A stretch of 56,659 nucleotides of DNA, from positions 1 through 56,659 of IMG/VR virus record IMGVR_UViG_3300027648_000002; one strand, written 5' to 3'. Below the pieces are notes generated by a model that saw only the letters and a list, made by a program, of their open reading frames with translations, was not told where the DNA came from and searched no databases. Every line of letters starts with the position of its first letter. The stretch's first letter is position 1. Both the position numbers and the translations under genes were made by a program. The stretch comes from a virus. This document shows positions 3,410-25,815 of the stretch, in pieces.

Positions 3410-3430
3410 AACATGCATTATCGCGCGTTG
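3410..3430. repeat. 21-nt motif AACATGCATTATCGCGCGTTG, copy 2
   Basis: Exact match to 425-445. Intergenic, between the gp48-like gene and 2986..3357. Confidence 0.9.
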
Positions 3431-3434
3431 ACAT

Positions 3435-4046
3435 TTAGAACGTCCCTTCGGTCAGTTCTGTCCATTTGCGTCCGGCCGAGATTTCGTCCCACGCTTTGGT
3501 ACCGCTGAGCCATGCGTCGGTGGCTTCGGTGATCGTGTACCAGATGCCTGCGGGGATCACTTCGTTGATCGCGTTGTAGAGCGCCTGCGTGGCCTTCCCG
3601 GTCCCGACGATTAGAATGAAATAGTAGGCGTTGGCTTCGCCCAACGGCCCGGTGCGTTCCCGGATCGTGAAGACTTTGGTTCCGATGACCCGTTCGATGG
3701 CCTGGTTGAGCGCTTCTCGGGTGCCGCGCGAGAACCCGGCGTGTTCTTCGACGATCGCTCGCGCTTCAGCTTCGGTCGCACCGGCCGGGATGCTCACCCC
3801 CACGTACATCCCGAGATAGCCGAGGTACTTGAAGGGGCACAGGGCGGGGCTCATCAGCTTGCCCCACGCGGCGACGTAGCCGGCTTCGCCGTCGGAGCCT
3901 TCTTCTTCGGCGAGTTCCAGGACGGCTTGGAACATCACGCCGAGCGCGTTGAGGTAGCGGTCGAGGTCCGTCTTGCCGGCGACGACTGGCCCCGTGTCCC
4001 AGGGCGCCATGTTCGTCTTCGCGCGGGTGGCGAACGACACGGTCAC
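3435..4046 (-). CDS. Baseplate protein, Mu gp48 / P2 gpI (DUF2313)-like
   Basis: Sits immediately after the baseplate J gene with an ATGA overlap. The WGKLMSP...EAEARAIVEEHAGFSRGT pattern fits this family. Confidence 0.65.
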   Translation of the reverse strand: MTVSFATRAKTNMAPWDTGPVVAGKTDLDRYLNALGVMFQAVLELAEEEGSDGEAGYVAAWGKLMSPALCPFKYLGYLGMYVGVSIPAGATEAEARAIVEEHAGFSRGTREALNQAIERVIGTKVFTIRERTGPLGEANAYYFILIVGTGKATQALYNAINEVIPAGIWYTITEATDAWLSGTKAWDEISAGRKWTELTEGTF

Positions 4047-5830: not shown

Positions 5831-6430
5831 TCAGTCGGTCGTGAACGTCACACCGTCGATCGATGCCTGTGTCGCGCCCGAGGCGAAGTAGACCGTGACG
5901 ACACCGGCGGCACTGACCGTGATAGCCGTTGCCGAGGCCTGGGTCGTGTAGCCGCCGCTCGAGTCAAAGGTCGTACCGGTTGGCCGGAACCCGTTGGGAA
6001 GCGTGAAGGGAGAAGATCCGCTCGCGCCGCCCCACAGTGAGCCGCGTAGACGCACTTCATTGGCCTTCTTGCGGTAGGCGACCGTGAGTCGGCCGGCCTG
6101 GTTGGCCCAGGAGTTGAGGAGCGCCGGTTCGATCCAGCCCGAGTCCGAGTCACTCCAGACGCCTTCCCACCACAGCACAACGGGAACGTCTGCTTCGCCG
6201 CCCGGGAAGCCGACAACGACGCGGGCGCCCTGTGCCGGCAGGCTCGTGCCGTATTCAGCGCTCCACGAGCACGCGACGGGCGCTTCCGTGGAGTGTTCGG
6301 GCAGAATCACCCACACCGGGTCGCCGAACGCCGCCGGCGCGGCCCGGGCCGTGCTCACATAGCCGGGAACTAGCGGACGCTCGTCAATGGTCGTGCCTGG
6401 CAGCGCTAGGAGCTTCGCGGGGTTGGGCAT
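5831..6430 (-). CDS. Baseplate spike / assembly protein V-like (Mu gp45 position)
   Basis: Start set at MPNPAKLL, which makes an ATGA overlap with the upstream stop. OB-fold-like GARVVVGFPGGEADVPVVLWW. Synteny supports the call. Confidence 0.65.
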   Translation of the reverse strand: MPNPAKLLALPGTTIDERPLVPGYVSTARAAPAAFGDPVWVILPEHSTEAPVACSWSAEYGTSLPAQGARVVVGFPGGEADVPVVLWWEGVWSDSDSGWIEPALLNSWANQAGRLTVAYRKKANEVRLRGSLWGGASGSSPFTLPNGFRPTGTTFDSSGGYTTQASATAITVSAAGVVTVYFASGATQASIDGVTFTTD

Positions 6431-8508: not shown

Positions 8509-9317
8509 ATCGGCCTGATTAGCGTGCGGGGCACCTTGACCTTTGTGCCCGCCTTGAGGACCTTCAGGACGTTACTGCCGATCGCACGGTTACCGGTGTT
8601 GGCTTGAGCGAGTTCCCGGGAGACTTTGTTGTCATGGCAGTAATGAGCGCCGATGTCCGAGAGGGTGCGCCACTTGCCGTCAACTGGCACCGTCACGATG
8701 TTGATCTGGCTGCCGACGGCTTCGCGGGCCTTCGCACGGTCGGCAGCCGAGTTCAGGCCGTCATCGAACGCGGGCGCCACGTACTCGGTGAGGGTGACGA
8801 CTGCGGCCTGGCGGACGCGGTAGCCGTTCTCGTCGCGCATCACGCCTGAGCCGAGCGTTTTGTTCCATTCGATGCCGGTGATGACCCAGTACAGCGATTT
8901 GGTCTGGAACTGCAAGGGCACGAGCGGCGTTTCGCCGCGACTGTCGAACGATTCGACCTGGATCAGCGGGCTGTTGCCTTCGCCGGGTGTGCCGACGCCG
9001 CCTTCCTTCTGCGTTTTGAACTTGACGCCGCGGCCGGCCATCCATTCGAGGATCTGGATGTCGGTCTCGACGGCTTTGCTGTCCGCGACGGTTGAGGTGT
9101 CGAACAGGATCGGCACCTGTAGCGTCATCGGTTCGTAGCCTTCGAGGATCGTCAGCGACTTGCGCTGGGGCCGCTTCACGCGGGCGTAGATCGCGTAGCC
9201 TTCTGTCGGCTGGAGCGATTCGCTGTTAGCGAGGACCGCGAATTCGTAGCGTTCGACGGCCTTGCCGTTCGTCAAGAGCCCTTTGAAGCGCACTTCGCGG
9301 GACGTGAGGTTGAGCAT
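8505..9317 (-). CDS. Tail protein with a C-terminal LysM-like domain (Mu gp43 / P2 gpX-like position)
   Basis: C-terminus VTVPVDGKWRTLSDIGAHY...ELAQAN...LKAGTKVKVP fits the LysM pattern. Lies between the tape measure and the hub. Confidence 0.65.
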   Translation of the reverse strand: MLNLTSREVRFKGLLTNGKAVERYEFAVLANSESLQPTEGYAIYARVKRPQRKSLTILEGYEPMTLQVPILFDTSTVADSKAVETDIQILEWMAGRGVKFKTQKEGGVGTPGEGNSPLIQVESFDSRGETPLVPLQFQTKSLYWVITGIEWNKTLGSGVMRDENGYRVRQAAVVTLTEYVAPAFDDGLNSAADRAKAREAVGSQINIVTVPVDGKWRTLSDIGAHYCHDNKVSRELAQANTGNRAIGSNVLKVLKAGTKVKVPRTLIRPI

Positions 9318-9329
9318 TGCGGCCTCCCG

Positions 9330-11069
9330 TCAGGCGCGTGCCTGCCTTTGCAGCGTGTGCAGCGCGACCGATTCCGCGAGATGACGTTGGCTCCACGGGT
9401 CAGAGATCAGGGTTTCTGTGACCTCCCTGGCACCGAGGTGCAGGTGAATGTGCAGGTCTTTGCCGCCCGCGTGCGTGGGCGCGGCGACCCCGTAGGGTGC
9501 GGGCGCCGCTGGCGTGCTGCTGCTCTTGCCGAGTTCACCAATGGTGTTGACGTGTCCGGCGCCGAGCCCGAAGGGCAGGTGCTTCTGAACGTAGTTGTAG
9601 CCTTCGATGACCTTGTTGATCGCCTTGATGACGAGATTAATCCCCGTTTCTACGCTGCCCACAATGGCGTGGAACACGCCGCCGACGAACGAGGCGATAC
9701 CGCCGAAGACCGTTTCGACGCCCTTCTTGATCTTCGTGAAGTTTTTGATGATCTCGACGATCACGAACGCGGGCAGCGAGAGGGTGGCGAGCAGCAGTTT
9801 CCAGTGTTTGATGATGAAGCCGACGACGGTCCCGACGACCAGCTTGATCACCGCGAAGCCTGTCTGCACGATTTCGCGGAACAGCCGTATGTGCACGTAG
9901 GCCTCAGCGAGTATAGCGATCAATGCGGCGACGGCAACGATCACTATGCCGACGGGGTTGGCGTCCATGACCATGTTTAGCAATGCCCAGGCGTCTGACC
10001 AGCTGGAGATCGAGGCCGCGAGCTGCATCACCATGAGCACCTGTGAGCCCGCGGCGAAGATGGCCTCCCCGGCGGCAGCGGCGATCGTCGCCGCACGCAC
10101 GGCTAGGAACACCGCGGCGAAGGCCGCTAGGGCTGGCCACGCGACGCGTATGACGCTCGCGACGACACCGAACGCCGTCTTGAACACGGCGCCGATCTGC
10201 TTGGAGTGGTTCATCACTCCCTGGGCCATGCTCGCCAGGAAGATCCCGACCTTCGTGATCGCGGGCAGCAGCTTGCGGCCGAGGTCCTCCTCCAAGAGGT
10301 CCAGCGTGTTTTTGAAGTTGCTCATCGCGCCCGATGCCGTCTTGCTGTAGGCGGCGGTCGCGTTGCCGTATTTCTTGGCGATGACTTCGTTGATCTGCAG
10401 TGCCGTGGCCTGTTTGTCGAGCAGTTCGGCGTGCTTGAGCAGTTCGGGGTTCTGCTTCTTCTGCGCTTCGGTGAGCTTGTCGACGTAGGTCTTGACGGGC
10501 TGGATGATCCCGAGGTACTGCTGCGCTCTGCCGGCTGTGCCGGCCTGGGCGCGAGCGACGATTTTCAGGGCCGCGCTGTATTCCAAGTGGGCACCGCGGG
10601 CAAGGTTGACAGCCGCCGCATTGAGCTTGACGGCCGTGCTCGCTTTGCCCGTGACCTGGATGAGCTGTGTCAGGCCGCGGGCTTCTTCGATCGGTGAAAA
10701 GCCGCCATGCGTCGCTGAGCGCTCGACGCTTTTGTTGAGCACGTCCATCTGCTGCTTGCCGGCCTGTCCGGTGTTCTTCAGCGCGTTCTGGAGCTGGGCC
10801 TGCTGTTCCTGCCACTGTTTGCCGCCCGAGATGACGTCCTTCAAACCGAACGCCACAGTGCCCAGGCCGAGCGCGCCGACGCCGTAGCCGATCATGTTCT
10901 TCAGGCCACCGAACGCCTTTGACAGCAGGCCGGACTTCTTGCCGGTCTCATCGAGGCTGTCGCCTGTTTTGTCGGAGGACTTTTCGACGTCCTCCATCGC
11001 TTTGTTCGCGCTCTTGCTGTCGCCCGTCAACAGCCACCGGACGATGCGTGTCTCCGCTGAGCCACCCAT
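9330..11069 (-). CDS. Tail tape measure protein
   Basis: 579 aa, with an A/G/Q/K-rich helical N-half and hydrophobic segments. Position after the chaperone genes. Confidence 0.85.
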   Translation of the reverse strand: MGGSAETRIVRWLLTGDSKSANKAMEDVEKSSDKTGDSLDETGKKSGLLSKAFGGLKNMIGYGVGALGLGTVAFGLKDVISGGKQWQEQQAQLQNALKNTGQAGKQQMDVLNKSVERSATHGGFSPIEEARGLTQLIQVTGKASTAVKLNAAAVNLARGAHLEYSAALKIVARAQAGTAGRAQQYLGIIQPVKTYVDKLTEAQKKQNPELLKHAELLDKQATALQINEVIAKKYGNATAAYSKTASGAMSNFKNTLDLLEEDLGRKLLPAITKVGIFLASMAQGVMNHSKQIGAVFKTAFGVVASVIRVAWPALAAFAAVFLAVRAATIAAAAGEAIFAAGSQVLMVMQLAASISSWSDAWALLNMVMDANPVGIVIVAVAALIAILAEAYVHIRLFREIVQTGFAVIKLVVGTVVGFIIKHWKLLLATLSLPAFVIVEIIKNFTKIKKGVETVFGGIASFVGGVFHAIVGSVETGINLVIKAINKVIEGYNYVQKHLPFGLGAGHVNTIGELGKSSSTPAAPAPYGVAAPTHAGGKDLHIHLHLGAREVTETLISDPWSQRHLAESVALHTLQRQARA

Positions 11070-11575
11070 CAGACGCCCTTGTCTTTGACGATGATGTCGG
11101 TCGTCTCGTGCACGGTCTTGAGGATCTCCAGGTGCACCCGGCCGCGGGTGGCGTCATAGGCGGGTGCCATGTAGCGGTGCATTTCCTGGCTGACCCACTG
11201 TGTACGGTCGCCGAAGACGGGGTGGCGGAAGTGCCCGCCGCGTGACGCTGTGGCTGCTTTGCTGGCGCCCGTGTTCCCCAACTCAAAAAGGCCCGCGATA
11301 GCGACGCCTTTGCCGCCCGCAACTACGGCGACGGTGGCACCGGCTACACGGACCTTGGCGGTGGGCGGTATCGTTTCGCTGTGCTCTGAGGCGATCGAGC
11401 GGGCCTCCACGGCCATGATCTCGCCGGCGTTGCGCAGCCGCTTGCGTAGATCCTTGCCCATCTTCCCGCGAGCCTTGTACAGCGACCGTGCGACCTGTCG
11501 GAAGTCCCTCGTGTCGATTCCGCCCGTGCCACGGACCGTGACGGTCGAGTTGCGCATCTCGGGTCCTCGTTTCAC
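11069..11575 (-). CDS. HK97 gp10-like tail or neck component
   Basis: FRHPVFGDRTQWVSQEMHRYMAPA resembles the gp10-family C-terminal pattern. The true start may be the ATG at 11557, which has a GAGGA RBS. Confidence 0.5.
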   Translation of the reverse strand: MKRGPEMRNSTVTVRGTGGIDTRDFRQVARSLYKARGKMGKDLRKRLRNAGEIMAVEARSIASEHSETIPPTAKVRVAGATVAVVAGGKGVAIAGLFELGNTGASKAATASRGGHFRHPVFGDRTQWVSQEMHRYMAPAYDATRGRVHLEILKTVHETTDIIVKDKGV

Positions 11576-11583
11576 GTGAAACG

Positions 11584-11877
11584 TCAGCTTCGGTCGGCGA
11601 TCTCCGCTGCGGTCTCGTTCGCCATGTCGTACACCGCCCGCAGGATCGTCAGGTAGGCCGGGTCAGCGCCGACGCTCAGCTCGAGCATCCCGGAGCCCTC
11701 GCACTCGCGGCACTCGCTGGGATGCGACCACCAGCGGCGCCTCGAGCTGCCCACGCCGCGACAGGCCGCGCATGCTTCGGTGAGGACGCCGCCGAACAGA
11801 CGCCGGAAGTCGACCTGGACGCCGAGCAGGGCGCAGTTCGCAGCCAGCCGGACTAGCTGGCTGCCTCGGATTCCCCC
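11584..11877 (-). CDS. -1 frame extension of the tail chaperone (T-like domain), carrying two CxxCxGxG zinc-finger repeats
   Basis: The -1 frame opens just after a TGA at 11890-11892 and stays open to the TGA at 11584-11586. Nearly all third positions are G/C. It encodes ...TEACAACRGVGSSRRRWWSHPSECRECEGSGMLEL.... No canonical start precedes the first motif. Confidence 0.55.
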   Translation of the reverse strand, partial: GGIRGSQLVRLAANCALLGVQVDFRRLFGGVLTEACAACRGVGSSRRRWWSHPSECRECEGSGMLELSVGADPAYLTILRAVYDMANETAAEIADRS

Positions 11878-12410
11878 AACTGCTCCTCGTCAATGTCGCC
11901 GTCGACGATGCCCTGCTTGCCCATCAGCAGCCCGGCGTGGACCACCACCTGCGCCTGCTGGGGGATGATGAGGAACACGGCTTCACGGTTCGTGATCTGC
12001 GCCCCGTCGCCTGGCGTGTGCAGCCCGAGGTATTCCGCGAACGCGACATCGAGCTTGTGCGCCTCCGCGTTGAACTGTGCGGCTTCGGCCGTGGCCTGCT
12101 CGTCGGCATCGGGGCCGACCCGGATCTCGACACGCTCACAGGACGCCAAGAGAGTGTCGGCGGCGTTCAGAAGCTCCTGTGTCGCTTCGGTGTCCTCCTT
12201 GTCTTTGCCGCGCACCCTCGCGTTGCGTGCCGCGATACGCCGCTGCGTCTTGTAGTCGACGAGGTGGTAGATGCCGACGAGCCGCCCGTCATAGCCGGGT
12301 ATCGCGAGCCGCTCGAGACGGTCGCCCTGCTGTTCGGCGCGCTGGCGACGCAACTGCTCCTGCAGCGACTCCGCGGGACGCGGAAGCTCGGTCGTGACGG
12401 GTGCGTTCAT
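11853..12410 (-). CDS. Tail assembly chaperone (G-like, zero-frame product)
   Basis: 185 aa, acidic, between the tube and tape measure genes. A G5 run lies 7 codons before the stop. Confidence 0.65.
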   Translation of the reverse strand: MNAPVTTELPRPAESLQEQLRRQRAEQQGDRLERLAIPGYDGRLVGIYHLVDYKTQRRIAARNARVRGKDKEDTEATQELLNAADTLLASCERVEIRVGPDADEQATAEAAQFNAEAHKLDVAFAEYLGLHTPGDGAQITNREAVFLIIPQQAQVVVHAGLLMGKQGIVDGDIDEEQLGESEAAS

Positions 12411-12424
12411 CCGTTCCTCCTCAG

Positions 12425-12847
12425 CTAGCTGATTGGCCCATTCGGGCTAATTTTCAGTTGCAGTCTGACCTCCTCGGAGGCACCCGATTTGTAGTTCGGG
12501 CGCATGACGCCCGCCGCGACGCCCGTGTATGTGAAGACGTTGCCGGTGGATGCCTGTTCGGGGCCGAGCAGCGTGTAGCTCGCGGTGACGGCTGCCGCGA
12601 TGACCACGGAGCGCTCCATCGCCTTGTATGCCGTGACCATTGCTTCTGACCACAGCCGTTCCACGGTGATCGGCGAGCGCTTGGAGATGCCACCCAGCGC
12701 GATCTGTTCCTGCATAGCGCCGGGGAACACGATCACTTCCTCGGCTGCGATGTCGCCGCCCTCCACCATATCCCACGATTCGGCGTCGAGCGAAAGTCCG
12801 GCGATCGATACGTGGATCGAGACCTGGTCACTTCGGTATATCCGCAT
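12425..12847 (-). CDS. Tail tube protein (contractile tail)
   Basis: 140 aa, immediately downstream of the sheath gene. Confidence 0.7.
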   Translation of the reverse strand: MRIYRSDQVSIHVSIAGLSLDAESWDMVEGGDIAAEEVIVFPGAMQEQIALGGISKRSPITVERLWSEAMVTAYKAMERSVVIAAAVTASYTLLGPEQASTGNVFTYTGVAAGVMRPNYKSGASEEVRLQLKISPNGPIS

Positions 12848-12849
12848 GA

Positions 12850-14328
12850 CTACGCTCCCACAGATTCAGTTATTGGGACGGACACTATGAACTCGCTGAT
12901 CGAGTTGGCGTACGGCGAGATCCGGACTTTGAGTTCCGCGTTGAGTTCGCCCGCCTGCTCAGTGGCCGGCGTGTTGATCGGTTCACCCACATTTGCCACG
13001 CCGGCGGTCGCTGCCGATTCGCCGAAGAGGGCGTTCTCTTTCCAGTGTTCGGCGATGACGCCCTGGAGTTCGCCCTGGAGCTTTGACAGCAGGATGCCGC
13101 GCCCGTCGATCGTCCGCCCGAAATACTTTTCGAGCAGTTCTTCTGACTGTGCGATGAGGTGCATGCGCTCGCGGCTCGCGGACGCCTGCCAGAAGATGCG
13201 GTCTGTGGCATAGGTCAGCGCGGTGACGAACCCGTACAGGCACGGGATGCCTGCGGGTGTCACATACCAGGAGTTGATGCCGGCTTCGGAGAGTTCGGTC
13301 ATCTGCGCGAGCGTGAACGTGTTCGTGAAGCTCTGCACGAAGTTGCTGATGCCGCCTGCGGGCTGCCCGGGTGGTGACCAGCCTGGCCCGATCGGCGCCT
13401 GGTTGTCGTTGCCCGTCGTGGCGACCTGTGCACACAGCGCGGCGATGACGCCAGACCCGGCGATTTTCCTCGTGGTCGAGGGAGTGAGCCCCGGCACTAT
13501 GCATGAGCTGGAGTGAAAGATCATGTACCCGGCGATGCCGGCCGCGTAGGCTTCTTTGGCGGTGATCAACGTCGCCGGGTTCGACGAGTCCGCGAGGTCG
13601 CAGATCGCGAAGCGGTTGTTTTTCGACGCCTGGCAGTGTTCGCCCATCAACACGTGGATGCCTTTTTTGACGGGTTCTTTTTCGGTGGCGGGTATCCACA
13701 CCTGGCCAGGACCGTAGGTCTTGAGGATACGTTCGAGAGCTTCTTTCACTGCGGCTTCCAGGATTTCCGTCGCGGGGTTGACGCCGCCCGTGAGCGCAGC
13801 CGCCGCAACGACTTTCAGAGCTTCGCCTTTGCCCGTCGCGTATTCGCTGCCTTCTTCCACGACGATGTAGGGCGAGTTGATGCCGAGGAATTCCGAGGCT
13901 TTGGTGCCTTTGATCGTTTCGAGGACTTCGCCGGCTTCGTTCTGGATGACGAGTTCGGTGGCGTTCGCTTCGATCTTGAGCTTGTTGCCGAGCGTGCCGC
14001 GGTACTTGGCTTTGACGATCAGCGTTTTCGCCGCGCCAGCAGTGGCGAGTTCTTTGGAGGCTGCGGTCGCCGCAGATTCTTTGCCGATCCGGGTGACGTA
14101 CACCTGCGCGCCGCCGAGCGCGAAGAACGCCTGGATCTCGTCGTACATCACAGCGCTGGTCGCTGTGCGTTCGCCGAACGTGGCGACGTATGCCGAGAGG
14201 CTCTTGATGAGCGTGGTGGTGAACGGGCCGGAGTCGGTCAGGCCGAGCGGGAAGCCCGTGCCGGTGGAGATGGATGTCCCCGCCGATTGAGCGGTCTCCG
14301 TGGCGACCACTTTGATGCCGAAGGGCAT
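12850..14328 (-). CDS. Tail sheath protein
   Basis: 492 aa. Position and sheath-like N-terminus (MPFGIKVV...GFPLGLT...AQVYVTRIG). Confidence 0.85.
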   Translation of the reverse strand: MPFGIKVVATETAQSAGTSISTGTGFPLGLTDSGPFTTTLIKSLSAYVATFGERTATSAVMYDEIQAFFALGGAQVYVTRIGKESAATAASKELATAGAAKTLIVKAKYRGTLGNKLKIEANATELVIQNEAGEVLETIKGTKASEFLGINSPYIVVEEGSEYATGKGEALKVVAAAALTGGVNPATEILEAAVKEALERILKTYGPGQVWIPATEKEPVKKGIHVLMGEHCQASKNNRFAICDLADSSNPATLITAKEAYAAGIAGYMIFHSSSCIVPGLTPSTTRKIAGSGVIAALCAQVATTGNDNQAPIGPGWSPPGQPAGGISNFVQSFTNTFTLAQMTELSEAGINSWYVTPAGIPCLYGFVTALTYATDRIFWQASASRERMHLIAQSEELLEKYFGRTIDGRGILLSKLQGELQGVIAEHWKENALFGESAATAGVANVGEPINTPATEQAGELNAELKVRISPYANSISEFIVSVPITESVGA

Positions 14329-14367: not shown

Positions 14368-15045
14368 CTACAGCGGTGTGCCGGTCGGCTCGCCGATGAC
14401 GGTGACCTCGCCGTCTTTGGCGGTCGGCGCGGGCTCGAATGGTTCTTCGACGCCTGTGTAGCCGGGCGATTCGGCGGGTGTCAGACCGGTCGGCCCGGCC
14501 TGCTGCTCGATGATCGGCGCGACCCAGATCGAGAAGATCGTCACGCATGCCTGCTCCCGGCGCTTTTCCGTTTCGGGGACCTCGGGCTTCGGGGCGCTCG
14601 TCATCCGGACCCACTGAAGCTGTGGGAGCTCCTGCTGTAGCTCGCCGTGCTGCAGCAGCGCCATCACGGCGGCGCCGAAGTGGGCGACCTGCTGGCGTGC
14701 TGAGTCTTCGGGCTGGGTCTGCTGGACGCCCTCATCGCCCATTCCGATGCAGTAGACGGTCACCTCGTACGCCTGGACGTAGCCGACGGACGCGCTGACC
14801 TCCGGCTCGCCGTTGGGGACGACGACGACGATCACGGCGGGCAGTTCGTCCTGTTTCCAGGCGATGGCTTCCTCGGTGCCGCCGTGGATGCTCTCGGGGG
14901 TCGGGGGACGTCCGATGCTGCCGCGCTGAAGGCCACGCTGTTCCTCGACTTCCGCGAGGTAGACGTTCAGCCAAACCTTGATCGTCTTGATGACGGCCTG
15001 CTCGACATCCCAAGTCGAGACGAGCGGCCCGATCAGCGTGGTCAT
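14368..15045 (-). CDS. Neck / tail terminator-like protein
   Basis: Position between the connector and the sheath. ELPAVIVVVVPNGEP...YEVTVYCIG resembles the terminator-family pattern. Weak call. Confidence 0.45.
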   Translation of the reverse strand: MTTLIGPLVSTWDVEQAVIKTIKVWLNVYLAEVEEQRGLQRGSIGRPPTPESIHGGTEEAIAWKQDELPAVIVVVVPNGEPEVSASVGYVQAYEVTVYCIGMGDEGVQQTQPEDSARQQVAHFGAAVMALLQHGELQQELPQLQWVRMTSAPKPEVPETEKRREQACVTIFSIWVAPIIEQQAGPTGLTPAESPGYTGVEEPFEPAPTAKDGEVTVIGEPTGTPL

Positions 15046-15995
15046 GCTATGGACGGGTGTCTGCGGGATGGCTGGAGCATCTCGCGGACGGAGTGGGGGA
15101 GTCCGACCATGGGTTTGCCGCCTTCGTCATCGGCCCGGGTCAGTGCGCCGCGGCCGACGGCTTGGGTGGTCTCATACCACCAGCGGATCGTCTCCACGGC
15201 TCCGCGGCGCACGTTGGGCGGCACGGTCGACTGGCCGGCTTCGTAGACGACGTGCACGGCGTTGCGGCCGGGCATGAACTCGATCACGCCGCCGCCCGCG
15301 GTGCGTCTGGTCAGCTCGCCGAGCTGCGGGTTGACTTCGACGCTGTAGATCGAGCCGAACACGGGGTTAGGGACGAGCGAGAGGGGATACTCGATCGGGC
15401 CGCGGAACTCCGAGACGCCGAGGATGTTCAGGAGCGGGTTGGTTCCCCAGCCGTAGGTGGGTGGGTGCAGGAGGCTGATGATGTTGCTGCCGCCGTCGAA
15501 GCGTTCGTCGTAGATCTGCGGCAGGATCGGCCCGACGACTTCTTCGATCAAGGGCCGTACGGCTTCGATTTCGCCGAGCAGCCAGTCGTCGTGCTTGTGG
15601 TTGTCCGGGTCGATGAACAGCTTCTCCTTCAGTTCGCCGAGACCGACGAGCTGCGCGGCGCTCGCGGCGAACAGGTTGGGCTGGATCTCGAGCCACAGAT
15701 AACCGGTGGTTGGGAAGCTCTGGACTTCTCCGCCGGCGAATTTGACGCGCCAGTTGACCATGTAGTTGCCGGGCGTCGCCGTGTCCGCTGCGGAGGGGGC
15801 GTAGTTCAGCTTGCCGGCGGCCGCTTCGACGATGTTGACTTTGCCCGTGAGCGGCGCGGGTTCCCTGGCGGTCAGGGAGCGTAGGATGAATTCGACGGTG
15901 GCACCTTCGAGCTTGACGGGTTCGCCGTTGGAGTAGCTGAGCTGTTCCCCGAAGACAGGCTCGGTGTCGCCTTGCACGATCTGAAAATCCGGCAT
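15042..15995 (-). CDS. Head-tail adaptor/connector protein with an N-terminal Ig-like (BppU_N-like) domain
   Basis: N-terminus IVQGDTEPVFGEQL...PVKLEGATVEFILR. The middle region LGELKEKLFIDPDN...LLGEIEAVRPLIEEVVG is gp6-like. Confidence 0.55.
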   Translation of the reverse strand: MPDFQIVQGDTEPVFGEQLSYSNGEPVKLEGATVEFILRSLTAREPAPLTGKVNIVEAAAGKLNYAPSAADTATPGNYMVNWRVKFAGGEVQSFPTTGYLWLEIQPNLFAASAAQLVGLGELKEKLFIDPDNHKHDDWLLGEIEAVRPLIEEVVGPILPQIYDERFDGGSNIISLLHPPTYGWGTNPLLNILGVSEFRGPIEYPLSLVPNPVFGSIYSVEVNPQLGELTRRTAGGGVIEFMPGRNAVHVVYEAGQSTVPPNVRRGAVETIRWWYETTQAVGRGALTRADDEGGKPMVGLPHSVREMLQPSRRHPSIA

Positions 15996-16004: not shown

Positions 16005-17594
16005 CTACTCGCCCGTGCGCTGGGAGGGATTCGAGCAACCGAGCACTTGAGATGGGCCGCTCTTGCCTGAGCGTTGGGATGGCGACGAGAACCCCGGTAG
16101 ACCAGGGCTCGGCTGGAACGCTTTGTTGGCAGTTGCCGACACCGCGCCCGCACCATGGCCTATCGCGGTCGATGTCCTACGAATCGTCGCTATGGTCGCG
16201 AGCGCCATCCCGGCACCCGAGGTACGAACCGCAATGCTGGCCCTCTTGGTGGCGCTGGCGTTGACGACGCCTGCACCATGCACGACGGCGGTGGCTGACG
16301 GCACCATCCGTCCCGACGCGGTCGCAGAGCCCGCTCCGTGGCCGCTCCCGGTGGCTGTAGCTCGACGGCCGGCCGTAGCCTGGCAGAGACCCGCCGTGTG
16401 GCTTTCGGCGACATTCGACGAGCGTTTGCTGCTGCCTACGGTGGACGCGGATCCGGCGCCGCTGGCGTGAGCTTCGTGTGACGCCAACACGGCATTGCCG
16501 GCTGCCGACGCCCCACCCGCCCCGTGAGCCACCACGGATGCTGTAGCGACACGCGACCCCGACGCGGTCGATCTACCGGTGCCGTGGGCAACAGACGAGG
16601 CCGACGCGATCCTTCCAACGGTCGCGGTCGCCTTCCCCGCACCCGACGTGCTGGCGGTGAGCGTGCCGCGCACCCCGTACGCCTGCAGAGGCAGTTCGCC
16701 CCATTCGATGGATTCCCAGGGAACCTTTTCGATCGTGGTGTAGGTCGAAGCGACCGACCGTTCGCTGTTTGTGCCGCCAGTCGTCTTGATCTTCAGGACC
16801 CCTTCACCGGCAGGGACCAGAAACGCGAGCGACTGAAATTTGCCTGCGCCTTCCCCAATCCGCAGTTCGAGACCGGTTACCGTCACCCAGCCGCCGCCCG
16901 AAGGGGTGCCCAGGTATGTCCCTACGCCCAGCAGGGCTCCGTTGCCGTGCGCGAACAGCCCGATCTGCACCTGCGTGGCCGTAGAGCCTGCGGGCCCGAC
17001 GTACAGGCGCATCATCCTTACGATGCCGCCGCCTTTGATCGGCAAGTATTCGCTGCGATAGATCACGCCCGGCAGCGCTTCGTGTTCGTTTTTGTAGGCT
17101 TCAGCTATCCCTGTCGATGGCCCCGCCAGCAACAGCAGCCCGGTCCCTTCGGCAGCGCAGAGTCCTGCGCCGTGAACCTGGGCGCTTGCCTGGACAGCGA
17201 TACGTGAGCTCGTGGCCTGCGCTTGCCCGGCGCCGTGCACAGCCGCGGCGCCAGCAGCAACCCTGGCGCCTTCGATCCGCGCGAGACCGGCACCAGTGAC
17301 TACCGCCGCAGATGAGGCGGTGCGCTTTGTGCTGGCAGTCGCTACGCCGGCGCCGTGAACGACGGCAGCAGTGGTGGCCACGCGCGACCCTTCAGCGCGA
17401 GCGCTCCCTGCGCCGTGGACTTCACCGGCACCCATCGCTACCCGCGAGGCTGTAGCCGCCCCAACGCCCGCACCGCTCACGGCCGCGAGCGCCACGCCCG
17501 GCGTCGCGGAGCTGCGGATAGGCCCGAACTCCCAGCTCCCGCGCTCATAGGCACGAGGGCGACGGCCCATGATCCCGCGCGCTATACGGGCCAT
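16005..17594 (-). CDS. Virion-module protein with about 15 tandem 20-aa HGAG repeats flanking a globular core
   Basis: Units such as VHGAGSARAEGSRVATTAAV and VHGAGVATASTKRTASSAAV recur N- and C-terminal to a roughly 170-aa beta-rich core. Good GC3. Confidence 0.7.
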   Translation of the reverse strand: MARIARGIMGRRPRAYERGSWEFGPIRSSATPGVALAAVSGAGVGAATASRVAMGAGEVHGAGSARAEGSRVATTAAVVHGAGVATASTKRTASSAAVVTGAGLARIEGARVAAGAAAVHGAGQAQATSSRIAVQASAQVHGAGLCAAEGTGLLLLAGPSTGIAEAYKNEHEALPGVIYRSEYLPIKGGGIVRMMRLYVGPAGSTATQVQIGLFAHGNGALLGVGTYLGTPSGGGWVTVTGLELRIGEGAGKFQSLAFLVPAGEGVLKIKTTGGTNSERSVASTYTTIEKVPWESIEWGELPLQAYGVRGTLTASTSGAGKATATVGRIASASSVAHGTGRSTASGSRVATASVVAHGAGGASAAGNAVLASHEAHASGAGSASTVGSSKRSSNVAESHTAGLCQATAGRRATATGSGHGAGSATASGRMVPSATAVVHGAGVVNASATKRASIAVRTSGAGMALATIATIRRTSTAIGHGAGAVSATANKAFQPSPGLPGFSSPSQRSGKSGPSQVLGCSNPSQRTGE

Positions 17595-17595
17595 C

Positions 17596-18807
17596 TCAGA
17601 TAACCGCCGAGCGTTGCACCGCCTGGCTCGCCATCAACACCCTGGGCAGCGCACTGGCCGCCGGCCCCACCACCACATAGGCGAGCGTGATGCCGCTCCA
17701 CAGGCCTGCTTCGGAGAACTTGCCCTTCGCGGTCAGCGTCGCGCCTTCCGCCGGGGTAGAGGTGTACTCTCCGCCGAGCGACAGGCCGGTCTGGTCAGCG
17801 CCCGTGAACGCTGTCATCCCGGCGCCGGCCGTGAACGTCCCGAGCGAGCCGGTGCTCGCGAAGAACGCGAGCCCGAAGTCGCCTTTGCCGCTGTTCGTTT
17901 TCGCCGAGGTCGATGCTTCGAGTTCGGTCGTGGCGAGCGCTGTCGTACCGGTCGCAGTCCCGCTCACGTCCACGCCCCCCGCGATGATGGCGACCTCACA
18001 TGCAGCGACATCAACCAGCACCAAGGAGCCCGCGACGGCCACTTTGACTTCGGTGATGCCTGCCGCGAGTCCTTTCGCTTTCCACGCCTGGAGGGTGGGG
18101 TGCACGCCGTCGTTGACTTCACCATCTAGGGTGTACGTGCTGCCTTTGTTGTCCGTTACGGTGGTGGCCGCGGCGACCCCCACGGCCGTCGCGACCGACA
18201 CGAACAAGTCGTTGCCGACGCCGGGTTCGGTGACCGTGACTTTGACAGTGCCCCCGCCGGACGGCGATTTTTCGGCGACGTGCCCGCTGCTGCGCCTGAG
18301 CGTCGCGGTTTCCGTTTCCACTTCGACGGACAGGTAGATCTCGTAGAAGTTGATCTGCGTCGAGCCGAGGTGTTCGGCCACAAGCAGTAGTTCTTCGAGC
18401 TTGGTCTTTGTTAGTTCTTCGGCCTGCGCTCTGGTCAGGCTGACCGTGAACCAGCCCTGGGCCGTGACTGTCGATTCCGGTTCGCTGCTCACCGATGGCG
18501 TGACGGTCCCGAACCGGATCAGTTTTTTCCCGGTCGCTGTCGATTTGACGTTGATATGGACCGTCGCGTTGACGACGGTCGCACCTTCACTGGTGAGTGC
18601 GCTCGTGAGCCCCGAAGGCAGCGTTAGGTTGCCTTCGACCTTCTTGCTGGCTGTCCCGATCTTCAGGAATTTGGCTGCGCCCGGGCTCGCGGGTTCTTCG
18701 ATCTGCCTCCCGACGACTTCTAGGGCAGTGCCGCCGCCTTCGATCGTCCATTCGTTGAGCGTGACTTCTTTGAGAAAGCAGTTGTATTTCTTCGTTTCGC
18801 GGGCCAC
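17596..18807 (-). CDS. Hypothetical virion protein (403 aa)
   Basis: Long ORF in the virion array with realistic T/S/A/V/G-rich composition. Confidence 0.6.
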   Translation of the reverse strand: MARETKKYNCFLKEVTLNEWTIEGGGTALEVVGRQIEEPASPGAAKFLKIGTASKKVEGNLTLPSGLTSALTSEGATVVNATVHINVKSTATGKKLIRFGTVTPSVSSEPESTVTAQGWFTVSLTRAQAEELTKTKLEELLLVAEHLGSTQINFYEIYLSVEVETETATLRRSSGHVAEKSPSGGGTVKVTVTEPGVGNDLFVSVATAVGVAAATTVTDNKGSTYTLDGEVNDGVHPTLQAWKAKGLAAGITEVKVAVAGSLVLVDVAACEVAIIAGGVDVSGTATGTTALATTELEASTSAKTNSGKGDFGLAFFASTGSLGTFTAGAGMTAFTGADQTGLSLGGEYTSTPAEGATLTAKGKFSEAGLWSGITLAYVVVGPAASALPRVLMASQAVQRSAVI

Positions 18808-18824
18808 TCAACGCTCCCGCGTGC

Positions 18825-19322
18825 TCAGCTCGGCCCCTGAATGAACTCGATGTAGGCGATGACCTTGACTTCCTGGGCCGCTTTGCACCGAAGCCCGAGC
18901 CCGACGAACGGCGATGTCAGCGCCGGGATTTCCGGCTCGCGGCCCAGGGGCGCCTGATACAGCAGCCCCGATGTCGGCGAGACCCGCCACACCTTCAGTG
19001 GGACGAGCGCCGTCGGCTCAGACGTTGCGGCAGCGAACGCCGTCATCGTGGCGGCTATCGCCGCCGCTGCGCCAGTGTTCCCGTTGCCTCTCGACATCGC
19101 CGGGGTCACGGACGTGTTGTTGGTGCCAGGCGTCGAGTTGGTCGCGTTCGTGGACTTGACGAGTTCGATCAGCACGGGTTCGTTGGCGGAGCTGACGCCG
19201 TTGAACGACACGCCGATCTCGACCACCTGGCCACCGATCAACGCCGTGGACTGCACCATCAGCACAGTCTTCGCGGTCGCCGCCGCGAGCGTCACTTCCC
19301 CGCTATTGGCCACATACTGCAT
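18825..19322 (-). CDS. Hypothetical virion protein
   Basis: 165 aa, in the array. Confidence 0.55.
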   Translation of the reverse strand: MQYVANSGEVTLAAATAKTVLMVQSTALIGGQVVEIGVSFNGVSSANEPVLIELVKSTNATNSTPGTNNTSVTPAMSRGNGNTGAAAAIAATMTAFAAATSEPTALVPLKVWRVSPTSGLLYQAPLGREPEIPALTSPFVGLGLRCKAAQEVKVIAYIEFIQGPS

Positions 19323-19325
19323 GAG

Positions 19326-19919
19326 CTACTGCGCGCCGAGAAGGTCGAGCGTGCTTTTTTTGACTTCGAACGAGCCGGCAGCAGAGAAAACTTCGGCCGT
19401 CACTTTCGCCAGCGCATACAACGTCCCGGCCGTCAACGCGGAATGGCTGGACACCCAGTTGACGGTGCACGCGCCCGCGATGACGACGGTGGCAGCGGCT
19501 TCTGATTCGGTCAAGGACTGTGCCGCCGCTTTCATCGTGACCGCTGCCCGCGTGTCGGACACCTCGGCGGCCTTGTGCACCGTGGCTGAGGACACGTTCG
19601 TGGTCCATGTGGCCTGCGCGAAGCTGGCCGTCTCAGAGAGTTCGATTTCGGTGGTGGAGACTTCTTTGACGAAGAACAGGCGTTCTGTGGCCGTCGTCCC
19701 TGTCAGTGACGCAAAGAGCGCGCCCGCGGTAGGACCAGCGAGTGCCGAGAAGTAGATCAGCATGCCGGTCGTCAGCCCGTGGGCTGTGTTGGATTTCAGG
19801 ATCGCGCCGGTACTCGTCCAGGTCTGCGCGAGCGTGGTGTCTTCATAGCAGCCGAGGTCTTTGACTTTGGCGACCATTTCGGCGAGCATCGCGTTCTTCG
19901 CATCCCCGGTGTACGGCAT
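19326..19919 (-). CDS. Hypothetical virion protein
   Basis: 197 aa, in the array. Confidence 0.55.
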   Translation of the reverse strand: MPYTGDAKNAMLAEMVAKVKDLGCYEDTTLAQTWTSTGAILKSNTAHGLTTGMLIYFSALAGPTAGALFASLTGTTATERLFFVKEVSTTEIELSETASFAQATWTTNVSSATVHKAAEVSDTRAAVTMKAAAQSLTESEAAATVVIAGACTVNWVSSHSALTAGTLYALAKVTAEVFSAAGSFEVKKSTLDLLGAQ

Positions 19920-19923
19920 CGCT

Positions 19924-20205
19924 CTACACCTGGCCTACGCTGATCGTGATGTGGTCTTTGACGGCACCCTCGTGGGGTGCGTGGCCGTCGTTGCCGTGGC
20001 CTTTCAGGCTCGCGGTCAAGGGCTCTGTGCCGAGCGCCCCGCTCGCGGCGAGAGAGACGCACGCTGCTTGGGCCGCCTTCACCTGCTCGGCCTCCTCGAC
20101 GGTCAGCTCGCGCTCGGGATTGCCCGACGGGACCACCGGCGCGTCCTCGGCTGCCTGCGCGAAATCCTCACCCGCGGTCGCGGGTACAACTGCTTCCCAG
20201 CTCAT
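19924..20205 (-). CDS. Hypothetical protein
   Basis: 93 aa, acidic, in the array. Confidence 0.5.
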   Translation of the reverse strand: MSWEAVVPATAGEDFAQAAEDAPVVPSGNPERELTVEEAEQVKAAQAACVSLAASGALGTEPLTASLKGHGNDGHAPHEGAVKDHITISVGQV

Positions 20206-22674: not shown

Positions 22675-24387
22675 TTAGACCGCCGGCGGGTACGCCGTGG
22701 AGGTGTATTTGATCGAGCCGCCGCCGAGCGCCCCAAGGGGAGGTTCGAAGCCCGTCCCGGACGCGATGGCCAACGACTGGCCGTAGCGCATCAGGAACGC
22801 GTAATACTCGAACACCTGGAAGCGGATCTCCAGGGTGCCCGAGAGCACCTCGGAAAGCGCGCGGGTGCGGAGCAGCCCCTCGAACAGCCACGCGTCGTCG
22901 AACTTCGCGGCGAGCGCGATGTCCGCCGTGCCAGCACCGGGGGTGCCGCTGGTGTCCTTGGTCGGGATGTTCGCGTCGATGTAGACGTTGTGCGGCCCGA
23001 ACGGCAACGACCCGACCAGACCCTCTGCGGGCTCTTCGCCGGCGCCGTACAGGGCGCTGACGTTGTATGGCCCGAAGTCCGAACGGTTGGCCACCAGACG
23101 CCCAGACTTGCCTTCGGCACCGTCGAGGCCTGTCCCGAACCAGTACCAGCGGCGCGGGTGCATGACGAGATGAACGTTCTGCACAGCGAAACGCGACGCG
23201 GCGATCTGGGAGATCATCGCGCCCATCACCATGTTGAACGCGGTCACCAGCGGCGCCGCTTCGGTCCAGGTGACGGTGTTCGCCGACCAGTTCGTAGACG
23301 GGTACATGCCCTTGATCAGCCCGGCGTTCAGCGCGGTGGTGTTCGTGCCCGGCGCGGAGATCACCTGCCGGTCGAGGAACCTGTTGAGGTCCGCGATGAG
23401 GTCTTCCATGATCACCTCGTCGAGGTGATACGGGGACTGCTCGAGCAGTTGGATCGCGATGTCGGACTGGCCGGCTGCGGTCTTGACGTTCGCCGTCACC
23501 GCTTCGTCCGTCCAGTCTTTGTCAGCGACCGGGGCTGAGTCCTGGGTCTGGGCCGCGACTTCTGTGGGTTCTTTGATCTTCGGCAGGTTGATGCTGTCGG
23601 TGCCCTCGGGGAGCGGCATGCGACGGCACAGATCGGCCGTGGTGCGGCCCGCACGCAGGTAGGGGATGAACTCCGGCAGCCACAGCGGGGGGACGAAGAA
23701 CCCCCCCTGGCCGTCCAACCTGTTTGGGTTGACTCGCTTCTCTTCCAGCCGGGTGATGCCGAGCTGGCTGCGGACGAATGGGTCGTCGATCAGCCCTCGG
23801 GCACGGATGTTCAGCGGCCCGTGCAGTTCCCGGGTGATCTGGTGCTCGGCCGCGTCCGCCTCAGCACGGGCGCGCCGCTCGGATTCAGCGGCGATCTTCG
23901 GGAACTCGACGCGCATCTCTTTGATGTGGCTTTCGATGCGTTCGTCACCGGAGTTCCCGAGCTGCGCCCGTGCCCCTGGGAGGTCTTTCGCTGCGAGGTC
24001 ACGGAAGAACGAGAAGCCGTTCCCTCGTTCGTAGGTCAGCGGGTTGCTGATGACTTCCAGGCTTGCGGTGCCGCGTGAGGCCTCCTGCGCGTCCTGCGCA
24101 CGGCGTGCCAGCAGCTCCTCCTCGTCGATGCGGCGATCCAGTGCGTGGATCGCCGCGGTGCGCTGGTCGTGTGCGGCACCGAAGGCGCCCTCGTCCAGGT
24201 CGAACTGCGTGCGCTCCTCGTCGGTCACCTCTTTGGTGTCGCGTGCCTCAAACGCCGTGCGCTGCTCGCGGCGCTGAGTGATCGCGACAGCGGCCGCGTC
24301 GATCAGCTCCTTGCGCTGGTCCTGGAGCTGCTCGAGGATCGAACGCTCGTCGGTCGGCGCCTCTTTCTCTTTGGTTTCAGGGGGCAT
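22675..24387 (-). CDS. Major capsid protein, HK97 fold, with a long N-terminal coiled-coil (delta/scaffold-like) region
   Basis: Start at MPPETKEKE with an AGGAGG RBS. RVNPNRLDGQGGFFVPPLW and SDIAIQLLEQSP...ADLNRFLDRQV are Phage_capsid-type motifs. Confidence 0.9.
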   Translation of the reverse strand: MPPETKEKEAPTDERSILEQLQDQRKELIDAAAVAITQRREQRTAFEARDTKEVTDEERTQFDLDEGAFGAAHDQRTAAIHALDRRIDEEELLARRAQDAQEASRGTASLEVISNPLTYERGNGFSFFRDLAAKDLPGARAQLGNSGDERIESHIKEMRVEFPKIAAESERRARAEADAAEHQITRELHGPLNIRARGLIDDPFVRSQLGITRLEEKRVNPNRLDGQGGFFVPPLWLPEFIPYLRAGRTTADLCRRMPLPEGTDSINLPKIKEPTEVAAQTQDSAPVADKDWTDEAVTANVKTAAGQSDIAIQLLEQSPYHLDEVIMEDLIADLNRFLDRQVISAPGTNTTALNAGLIKGMYPSTNWSANTVTWTEAAPLVTAFNMVMGAMISQIAASRFAVQNVHLVMHPRRWYWFGTGLDGAEGKSGRLVANRSDFGPYNVSALYGAGEEPAEGLVGSLPFGPHNVYIDANIPTKDTSGTPGAGTADIALAAKFDDAWLFEGLLRTRALSEVLSGTLEIRFQVFEYYAFLMRYGQSLAIASGTGFEPPLGALGGGSIKYTSTAYPPAV

Positions 24388-24534
24388 TGGCCCCTCCTTT
24401 CGGGAGAACACCCTCGCGGGTGCTGGTGTGGTCTCTCCCGGGCGATACTCGACCTGCTCGGCCGGCACACGCGCGATTGCAAGGGGCGCGTGAAGGCGGC
24501 GAGGGCGGAGCCCAACGCGGGGTCACTGCAAGAT

Positions 24535-25815
24535 TTAGTAGCCCGACTGAACTTCCAGCGCTTTTCCGGTCAAATACGCCAGTCCCGTCGGGTAGCGGAA
24601 CAGCGCGGCGGCGTAACCGTGGAGCATGAAGCGCGCCTGCAGGGTGCCCGACAGGGTCTCCTTGTCCACCATCGTGCTCTTCGCTGTCTCGAACAGCATC
24701 GAGTCGGTGGGGCGGGCGCAGACGATGACGTCCTGGTTGCCGTTGATATTCACCGGGATCGCATCCGACAGGTAGGTCGGCCAGCCCAGGATCGGCGGTG
24801 CCACGGCAGGGCGCGTGTCGTCGAACGTGTACGGGACGGGCGGCAGCGCCTGGTGGCCCGGCACCGCGAGAGGAAGTTTCTCTTCGTCCTCTTCCGAGCC
24901 AATGTACGCCCAGCGGGCCGTCCGCATCAGCCAGACCTCGGGCGACACTTTGCGGGCGTCGCCGAGCTGTCCTGCGACCTTCCCGAGTTCCTTGAAGATT
25001 TCATAGCCTTTGGTGCCGGTCGCGGTTACTACCGACACGCCGCCGGCGCCTGTCGTGAGGTTCAAGATGCCTGCGATCTGCTGGTGGGATTTGCCGGTGC
25101 CGTTGAACAGCGCCGCCTCTAGAGCTTCGTCGTAGTCCTCCAGCAGGTCCTTGAGGATCGAGTGGTCCAGGTGCGCTCCGGCCGGGGACTGTTCGAGTAG
25201 TTGCATCGAACAGCCGGAGTTGCCGCTGAACGTCTCCACCCACGATTCGGCTGCGGCGTCGGTGAAGTCCTGGTCGGGGACCGGCGAGACATCCTGCGTC
25301 GCTTCAGCAGCGGTGCCGGGCGCCAGGATGCGCGGCAGCTTGATTTCCGAGACTTTGGCTGTCAGCGGGAAGGTGGGGATCAGGCTCGCGAGGACACGCT
25401 TGGCGCGCGGCGCCGTGGCGAAGGCCTCGTTGGCCCACAGCGGCGGCGAGAAGTAGCCGCCTTGGCCATCGATGCGGCTCGGGTTCACGCGCGTCTCAAG
25501 GCCCTCGGGGGCGCTGCGGTACACACGCTCCAGAAACCGCGGCATCTCGATGTCCATCTCGGCTGCGTGGCGTTGCAGGCGCCCGCTGGCCTCCTGGTCG
25601 CCGTTGATCTCGGCGAGCGCTCGGTCACGGAAGTAGCTGGTCGGGGTGTGCCGTTCGTAGGTCAGGGGTTCGCGGGTGGTGCGCACCTCGGGCCGGCGCA
25701 CGCGCTCTTCGGCGAGCACAACGTCGCGCAGCTCCGGCGGGATCGCCTCCCATGTCGCGCGGACCTCGTCGATCGCCGCGCGTGCCTGCTCCGCCGTGCG
25801 GGTCTCGTCAGTCAT
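24535..25815 (-). CDS. Second HK97-fold capsid protein, paralog of 22675..24387
   Basis: PLTYERHTPTSYFRD, RVNPSRIDGQGGYFSPPLW and CSMQLLEQSP...LEDYDEALEAALF align with capsid gene 1. Confidence 0.85.
   Translation of the reverse strand: MTDETRTAEQARAAIDEVRATWEAIPPELRDVVLAEERVRRPEVRTTREPLTYERHTPTSYFRDRALAEINGDQEASGRLQRHAAEMDIEMPRFLERVYRSAPEGLETRVNPSRIDGQGGYFSPPLWANEAFATAPRAKRVLASLIPTFPLTAKVSEIKLPRILAPGTAAEATQDVSPVPDQDFTDAAAESWVETFSGNSGCSMQLLEQSPAGAHLDHSILKDLLEDYDEALEAALFNGTGKSHQQIAGILNLTTGAGGVSVVTATGTKGYEIFKELGKVAGQLGDARKVSPEVWLMRTARWAYIGSEEDEEKLPLAVPGHQALPPVPYTFDDTRPAVAPPILGWPTYLSDAIPVNINGNQDVIVCARPTDSMLFETAKSTMVDKETLSGTLQARFMLHGYAAALFRYPTGLAYLTGKALEVQSGY

Follow-up and report, generated by a model that had tools for sequence, protein, structure and literature searches.

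A protein with two arrays of 20-residue HGAG repeats around a globular core, encoded in a variable cassette beside the head-tail adaptor gene of a contractile-tailed phage

Phage fibre cassettes set host recognition, and much of their content is unannotated. The IMG/VR virus record IMGVR_UViG_3300027648_000002, analysed here over its whole length of 56,659 nucleotides (nt; hereafter the window), raises the question of what is made by one gene of such a cassette: a minus-strand open reading frame (ORF) at 16005..17594, with an ATG start, encoding 529 amino acids (aa) plus a stop and tightly packed between the stop of a 403-aa gene upstream (17596-17598) and the start of the adaptor gene downstream (15995). 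In its product, the HGAG-repeat protein, a core of about 155 aa stands between six x[H/T/S]GAG units on the N-terminal side and nine on the C-terminal side, and a Ser/Pro tail closes the chain. We tentatively read it, with a confidence that stops short of even, as a structural accessory fibre or adhesin of an exchangeable neck/head fibre module located beside the adaptor gene.

The repeats were delimited with a hidden Markov model (HMM) built from the units of the window protein and those of a relative, P0001, described below. This unit HMM recognised exactly 15 domains in the HGAG protein (149 bits), starting at aa 39, 59, 79, 99, 119 and 140 in the N-terminal array and at aa 316, 336, 356, 377, 399, 418, 438, 458 and 479 in the C-terminal one, and matched no other ORF of the window, which has 65% guanine plus cytosine (GC). 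When anchored on x-G-A-G, the 15 units measure 19-22 residues, with the consensus V-H-G-A-G-x-A-x-A-x-G-x-R-[VI]-A-x-x-x-A-V. BLOSUM autocorrelation at lag 20, tested against composition-preserving shuffles, gave z = 7.4 for the N-terminal array and z = 5.8 for the C-terminal array, and the period was not found in the core by the same test. An initial annotation of this DNA had described the 529-aa ORF and counted about 15 tandem units of about 20 residues, six of them N-terminal and nine C-terminal, and both statements hold. Two of its boundaries had to be moved, the start of the C-terminal array going from nt 16607 to nt 16652 (about aa 315) and the core shrinking from about 170 to about 155 aa (aa 159-314). 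Its designation of the repeats as HGAG is borne out for the GAG, whereas the preceding residue is His in just 10 of the 15 units, being Ser in four and Thr in one. The segments of the protein are as follows, with the predicted local distance difference test score (pLDDT) where relevant:

17484..17594, minus strand: N-terminal segment, aa 1-37; net charge +5, non-repetitive, pLDDT ~30
17121..17483, minus strand: N-terminal array, aa 38-158; 6 units of 20-21 aa, consensus VHGAGxAxAxGxR[VI]AxxxAV, pLDDT 60-80
16653..17120, minus strand: central globular core, aa 159-314; normal composition and codon usage, pLDDT <50
16104..16652, minus strand: C-terminal array, aa 315-497; 9 units of 19-22 aa
16005..16103, minus strand: Ser/Pro/Gly-rich tail, aa 498-529, plus stop; '..QPSPGLPGFSSPSQRSG..SNPSQRTGE'

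Both arrays contain 64-67% Ala, Gly, Ser and Thr, no aromatic residue at all and 5-7% Leu, Ile and Met, and both are net basic. The low identity between units (on average 31% in amino acids and 41% in nucleotides) shows that the repeats are old and diverged, and Tandem Repeats Finder reported no tandem repeat at the DNA level in the gene, in agreement with the initial view that recent slippage did not produce them.

The same comparison between units revealed how the sequence is constrained. Nucleotide identity among the 15 units was 0.47 at both the first and the second codon position and 0.29 at the third, 69% of the residues that are identical between units were spelt by different codons, and the invariant Gly and Ala positions of the G-A-G motif draw on all synonymous codons. 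Therefore, the conservation of the first two codon positions and not of the third, together with this variety of synonymous codons, indicates that the repeat is conserved as protein and in the annotated frame. This frame also had the best codon log-likelihood of the six in every segment of the ORF, with +0.38 in the core (+0.36 to +0.73 in trusted genes) and -0.14 and -0.21 in the arrays, and the other frames at the 3' end held neither a hidden LYPS-type motif nor an alternative reading. The HGAG reading frame is under protein-level selection, and the idea that it is not a gene is ruled out by the codon-position and synonymous-codon evidence; the reservation made at the outset, that the frame might not be translated, is thus answered by a frame that is under selection and scores best in every segment.

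The protein was compared with the family libraries without finding any family in Pfam-A (E ≤ 0.1), PHROGs v4 (E ≤ 0.1) or NCBIfam 20 (E ≤ 0.05), and its best match among PDB sequences by phmmer was an irrelevant one (E 0.049). The repeat had been said to belong to no recognised family, and these libraries and the PDB sequences agree. Among GenBank phages, tblastn and megablast retrieved nothing for the HGAG protein, for its 20-kilobase (kb) neighbourhood or for its L077 relative (see below). When phmmer was run exhaustively against 1.84 billion sequences representing the clusters of about 15 billion proteins, two partial relatives emerged. The first, P0001 (437 aa), has a different N-terminal domain, eight [HT]GAG units (E 3.8e-11) and a tail ending in 'GLYPGDALFPSDALFPH'. 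The second, P0002 (155 aa), corresponds to the core alone (35% identity over 123 aa, E 1.7e-5 among those representatives). The P0002 gene, in phage contig L002, begins where a tail-fibre gene (phrog_454 and phrog_2631) stops, and the next gene encodes a 755-aa protein. Word-indexed homology searching gave no relative for the full protein or for blocks of repeats, the candidate list being filled, at 8000 entries, by low-complexity words, and for the core profile it gave P0002 alone.

The DNA pattern VHGAG-N45-VHGAG was present at 1 viral, 41 metagenome and 28 genome loci, all of them rejected as chance or out-of-frame occurrences by six-frame translation and the unit HMM, so the search of metagenomic phages proposed in the initial annotation ended in chance matches alone. 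As these scans of viral, metagenome and genome collections gave nothing beyond chance, the HGAG repeat is extremely rare, and matches to its HMM were confined to the window protein and P0001. A sheath-based search of GTDB genomes gave no prophage relative, and the downstream gene of L001 showed no similarity to the adaptor. An unrelated ORF of 551 aa at 2144-3799 of L003 (IMGVR_UViG_2508501067_000003), carrying about 18 almost identical units of 20 aa ('VVRANATFTAPVLAEVSGS'), entered the pattern search solely via its antisense strand.

The core, in turn, has a wider kinship. A core-based search revealed two further proteins of uncultured phages, L075 (333 aa) and L077 (441 aa). The window core is directly related to the N-terminal domain of the former (31% identity), through which the core of the latter is linked (41% identity between L075 and L077, E 1e-21), and the four-member core alignment (A8) contains 14 invariant columns. 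In both proteins the core-like N-terminal domain is followed by an array with a 20-aa period (lag-20 z of 10.0 for L075 and 5.3 for L077). The repeat sequences themselves differ, as the HGAG HMM matched neither these arrays nor the repeats of a protein of the related phage sequence L004 nor those of gp79 of phage GP4, and hhalign between the HGAG units and the L004 units gave no informative signal, the profiles being too short. Judged from these alignments, the window, L075 and L077 proteins share the architecture of a core plus 20-aa repeats, with a core homology that extends to P0002. The likeness of the HGAG tail to the tail of the L077 protein ('GLPGRSNPTS') is marginal, since 17 of 1000 shuffles scored equally well.

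How these segments may fold was explored with AlphaFold2 monomer models, which rest on 3-sequence alignments. The full-length model had a mean pLDDT of 57, with 70-80 in the arrays and values below 50 in the core and both tails, whereas the C-terminal array modelled alone reached a pLDDT of 75.4 and a predicted template modelling (pTM) score of 0.72. In the array models, which are all-beta, DSSP assigned two strands to each 20-aa unit, each of 7-9 residues. With two short strands per unit joined by Gly turns, one unit would therefore constitute one rung of a two-sheet beta-solenoid. Foldseek comparison of the array model with the PDB gave no significant match to a solved structure (best E 0.069, tapirin; template modelling (TM) score ≤0.54), and the weak neighbours were all beta-solenoids (tapirin, LpxD/GlmU, ice-binding proteins and 3lyc, the last with a TM score of 0.5). 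In BFVD the best match was an uncharacterised phage protein (E 1.9e-4), and others were proteins of uncultured phages, some of them named 'curlin associated'. The fibrous or solenoid shape suggested in the initial annotation is thus favoured by the predicted all-beta, two-strand units and by the solenoid neighbours, although no solved structure matched significantly. A solenoid of 15 coils would be only about 7 nm long, so that a long fibre is not borne out.

For the core, the Foldseek comparison suggested at the outset did bring up CBM6 and lectin-type neighbours, but they were not significant (E 0.03-0.1, TM scores of 0.43-0.48 when target-normalised, on a model with pLDDT <50), and the core-family profile gave nothing convincing against Pfam or the PDB. 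In the reading of the protein as an accessory fibre or adhesin, the core would be a beta domain that probably binds a ligand.

Where such a protein would act is suggested by its genomic surroundings. The window belongs to a contractile-tailed phage with its virion genes on the minus strand, in the order large terminase, portal, protease, two major-capsid-like genes, small unknown genes and the cassette, after which come the adaptor, a 225-aa neck protein, sheath, tape measure and the baseplate J-like and I-like genes. The genes flanking the cassette (the two capsid-like genes, adaptor, sheath, tape measure and baseplate) are thus all virion genes, and the next gene in transcription after the HGAG gene is the adaptor, as had been annotated initially. 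The neighbours of the HGAG gene are:

15042..15995, minus strand: head-tail adaptor gene; phrog_442, E 2e-8 over aa 110-315, with an extra ~105-aa N-terminal domain
17596..18807, minus strand: 403-aa cassette protein, immediately upstream; aa 170-377 align with aa 5-208 of the 543-aa protein of L004 (41% identity, E 7e-31)
18825..19322, minus strand: 165-aa cassette protein; no relatives in Pfam or PHROGs scans
19326..19919, minus strand: 197-aa cassette protein; distant, transitive link to the Gp80 (GP4 Fiber-1 / whisker) family
19924..20205, minus strand: 93-aa ORF at the head-proximal edge of the cassette; conservation with L004 and L077 ends at ~20215

The ~105-aa N-terminal domain of the adaptor matches phrog_1084 and phrog_1627, and its similarity to BppU_N does not reach the threshold, with E 0.17 for the window protein and E 0.0025 for the L077 orthologue (6196-7149); this domain may be a built-in, collar-like anchor for fibres. 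The 165-aa protein was considered as a relative of the GP4 cement protein gp1, but the similarity was not significant. Further towards the head, two adjacent minus-strand genes, at 22675-24468 (597 aa, E 1e-32) and 24535-25815 (426 aa, E 7e-25), have products that match the major head protein family phrog_2263. The pair may be the outcome of a capsid-gene duplication, or one member may encode the capsid protein and the other a capsid-like protein with a vertex or auxiliary role.

L004, with a sheath of 83% identity, and L077, with about 80% identity in the capsid and 66% in the adaptor, have the flanks in common with the window and lack the block 16005-20205. The cassette is replaced in L004 and lies beyond the other side of the adaptor in L077, in such a way that it is upstream of the adaptor in the window and in L004 (3100-8140) and downstream in L077 (7300-14280), with the flanking head and tail genes collinear. 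Directly upstream of the adaptor, L004 encodes a 543-aa protein (6511-8142) in which an N-terminal domain homologous to the 403-aa protein is followed by about 13 AAAG units of 21 aa (xxLxAAAGxSxGSLxxTAxxx). This array is interrupted twice, by 'LYPGEELYPG' and 'LYPSEELYPG', to which the end of P0001 ('GLYPGDALFPSDALFPH') is similar, and such LYPG-type sequences may be a common terminal or docking motif of both proteins. In L077 the cassette holds a Gp80-like gene, the 441-aa core-plus-repeats gene, a 1087-aa tail-fibre protein (9250-12513; phrog_454, E 6e-51) with six 'LASPxLTGTPxAPT...ATTAF' repeats around a glycoside-hydrolase-like middle domain, and a 634-aa ORF (12287-14191) that was classed as beta-helix-like by eye alone, with no library scan. 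The 1087-aa and 634-aa proteins are probably depolymerases encoded within a core-plus-repeat cassette.

Relatives that join the domain of the 403-aa protein straight to a repeat array suggest that the junction between the 403-aa and 529-aa ORFs (17595-17640), where stop and start are one base apart in TGAGATG, may mark a gene fission or a split by a single indel. In its strongest form, this would mean that both ORFs are one gene of about 930 aa, divided by a sequencing indel or joined by a frameshift in vivo. The L004 protein, in which a homologue of the C-terminal half of the 403-aa protein is fused to a 21-aa repeat array, speaks for it, as do P0001, where a globular domain precedes HGAG units, the one-base gap, the odd basic first 37 aa and the start region of the HGAG gene, in which no clear ribosome-binding site was seen. 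However, the HGAG frame is open for just 13 codons upstream of the ATG, this short stretch contains neither a homopolymer nor a slippery site, and each of the two ORFs scores as coding in its own frame. Stop-start coupling of this kind is, moreover, frequent in phage late operons, and we regard a single gene as highly unlikely. The N-terminal domain of P0001 was also considered as a version of the domain shared by the 403-aa and L004 proteins, which was unsupported (probability 0.4%).

The canonical tail-fibre slot of the window (2263-3414, minus strand), past the gpJ-like (4043-5515) and P2 gpI-like (3435-4046) genes, holds just two ORFs, of 142 and 228 aa. As this slot is small, the main host-recognition fibres may be encoded elsewhere, perhaps in the cassette. 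The HGAG protein could then be a distal adhesin or an assembly factor bound next to or onto the tail fibre, and not at the neck or head, and it is consistent with this that the P0002 gene begins where one for a tail fibre ends and that the 441-aa relative in L077 directly precedes the 1087-aa tail-fibre protein. Even so, we consider this role improbable, because about 10 kb separate the cassette from the baseplate genes while the adaptor gene is its immediate neighbour, the L075 relative is located between the portal and capsid genes, and the protein matched no tail-fibre or chaperone family in Pfam, PHROGs or NCBIfam.

A possible link to the neck is the Gp80 family. The subunits of this type form Fiber-1 of the Ralstonia podophage GP4 and the neck whiskers of Bas63, where their dimers (five per rope in GP4 and two in Bas63) wrap around an extended rope 'like beads on a string', the rope being anchored to an immunoglobulin (Ig)-like collar at the adaptor (PMC12609058). 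The Pfam cut-off of Gp80 (PF23140; 27 bits) was passed by a 138-aa protein of L004 (56 bits) and a 157-aa protein of L075 (30.1 bits), whereas the 201-aa protein of L077 remained below it (16.4 bits). The 197-aa protein of the window has no direct match in Pfam and is related to the latter protein by BLASTP (E 9e-10). In L075 and L077 the core-plus-repeats gene directly follows the Gp80-like gene, and in GP4 gp80 is followed by gp79 (L079 8948-9925; MH638294 57947-58924), annotated 'virion-associated', in which GxG recurs at intervals of 10 aa and periodicity at 10, 20 and 40 residues (z ~5) extends over about 218 aa, equivalent to about 11 units of 20 aa versus 10 Fiber-1 subunits per rope. 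No Pfam family or PDB chain corresponds to gp79; the GP4 chains in PDB 8JOU include gp80 and gp77, and gp79, gp78 and gp83 are not among PDB chains. Homologues of gp79 exist in GP4-like and Bcep22-like podophages, where they are annotated as virion structural proteins.

These data give the fibre/adhesin reading its main rival, in which the 20-residue units would be docking strands, each threading one Gp80-family whisker subunit and completing its incomplete beta-sandwich. We judge this docking role rather unlikely, and grade in the same way the two proposals that go with it, namely that the HGAG protein strings the whisker subunits, as do the GP4 rope and the Bas63 collar extension, with the repeat number setting the fibre length, and that the central domain is the joint or tip, for example a lectin-like joint of a two-armed rope. 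The precedent of whisker dimers wrapped around an extended rope in GP4 Fiber-1 and Bas63 (PMC12609058) is in its favour, and so are the recurrence of a Gp80-like gene followed by a gene for a protein of 20-aa period in L075, L077 and GP4, the order adaptor, Gp80-like gene and repeat protein in GP4 and L077 (GP4 has gp81 between the adaptor and gp80), the approximate match between the 11 periodic units of gp79 and the 10 Fiber-1 subunits, and the composition of the HGAG arrays, whose 64-67% of Ala, Gly, Ser and Thr without aromatics is as expected of a strand that needs a partner. On the other hand, gp79 is only a candidate for the rope gene of GP4, the HGAG HMM matched none of the repeats of gp79, L075, L077 and L004, two genes separate the Gp80-like gene from the HGAG gene in the window, and AlphaFold2 folds the array alone (pLDDT 75).

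The position of the gene past the capsid genes and ahead of the neck genes would also suit a fibre or decoration attached to capsid vertices or hexamers. The location of the L075 relative between the portal and the scaffold/capsid genes would fit as well, and there is a precedent in myophage 7-7-1, which has capsid fibres of undefined composition whose protein identity is unknown (PMC12796354). We nevertheless hold this to be quite improbable, since no capsid-binding domain was recognised in the HGAG protein, the neighbours in the cassette point to a collar/whisker system and not to decoration proteins, and the 165-aa neighbour lacks significant similarity to the GP4 cement protein.

In the fibre/adhesin reading that we tentatively prefer, the two arrays would fold into thin all-beta rods flanking a beta-rich globular domain, which would be the conserved, function-bearing part of the small family that includes the P0002, L075 and L077 proteins. 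On the virion, the protein would be exposed at the neck/collar or head alongside the Gp80-like whisker protein, and would act as an auxiliary adhesin that binds reversibly to polymers of the host surface.

Several observations weigh against this proposal. The presence of the product in the virion is something that we infer from the genes alone, and the Gp80-like gene of the window is tied to its family transitively only. The GC content at third codon positions is 0.72 in the HGAG gene, compared to 0.79-0.86 in the neighbour genes. Neither the core nor the arrays matched a solved structure significantly (best E 0.03-0.07), and the underlying models were built on alignments of only three sequences. 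Arrays devoid of aromatics and with just 5-7% Leu, Ile and Met would make a poor core for a self-folding solenoid, so a partner-dependent or oligomeric structure fits at least as well. Finally, the relatives of the core were found in three contexts, behind a tail-fibre gene in L002, with portal and capsid genes on either side in L075 and past the adaptor in L077, and therefore synteny does not fix the attachment site.

The significance of the locus depends on which reading holds. In any case, the HGAG repeat type is known from two proteins only, after the exhaustive search and the pattern scans of viral, metagenome and genome collections, and a small family with a core plus 20-aa repeats, travelling with Gp80-type whisker genes, has been brought to light. 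If the units do thread whisker subunits, the length of neck fibres would be set by the HGAG protein and its counterparts (gp79, the 543-aa protein of L004 and the proteins of L075 and L077), acting as molecular rulers. They would represent a widespread, sequence-divergent class of periodic fibre scaffolds so far overlooked, missed by sequence searches because only the period is conserved; such rulers would also give a means of engineering the length of fibres. Should the protein be an accessory adhesin alone, it would be one more orphan fibre protein, but even then its conserved ladder of His and Gly and its aromatic-free beta arrays make it a good structural target.

Among known systems, the repeats of the curlin CsgA are about 20 aa long, and curlin-type and other two-sheet beta-solenoids (DUF4097-like, 3lyc/3ljy) resemble the HGAG units (about 20 residues, predicted strand-turn-strand, Gly at the turns, solenoid neighbours in Foldseek). 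In contrast, the HGAG protein has no match to Pfam Curlin_rpt, its units lack the ladders of Ser, Gln and Asn typical of curlin, and the core positions would be occupied almost only by Ala, Val and Thr. The triple beta-spiral of adenovirus and reovirus fibres and the triple beta-helix of T4 gp5 and gp12 are similar in having short beta repeats with Gly turns and a shaft plus a globular domain, but differ in their period (about 15 or 8 residues versus 20) and in the terminal and not central position of the globular domain; no fibre-shaft structure was among the Foldseek or PDB-sequence matches of the HGAG protein. The core is beta-rich and of about 150 aa, like the CBM6 / galactose-binding-like jelly-roll, a likeness that stands at E 0.03-0.1 on a model with pLDDT <50 and is not accompanied by any Pfam or PDB match of the core profile.

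The closest parallel in organisation is with GP4 and Bas63. As in these phages, the fibre genes cluster at the adaptor gene, Gp80-family genes are present in the related cassettes (above the cut-off in L004 and L075, weakly in L077 and transitively in the window), and the extra N-terminal beta domain of the window adaptor could serve as a collar; as in GP4, a Gly/Ala-rich protein with a 20-aa period is encoded beside the Gp80 gene, being in that phage the rope candidate gp79, with its period of 10/20. The differences concern the sequences and the layout, since the HGAG protein has no detectable homology to any GP4 protein, the window phage is contractile-tailed with a phrog_442 adaptor whereas the GP4 podophage has SU10_adaptor, and a central globular domain is placed between two arrays. 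Thus, the kind of system, a phage fibre-module protein made of short beta repeats and a globular domain, is known, whereas the sequence family, the HGAG repeat and the two-array architecture are, as far as the sequences compared here indicate, new and almost unique in public data.

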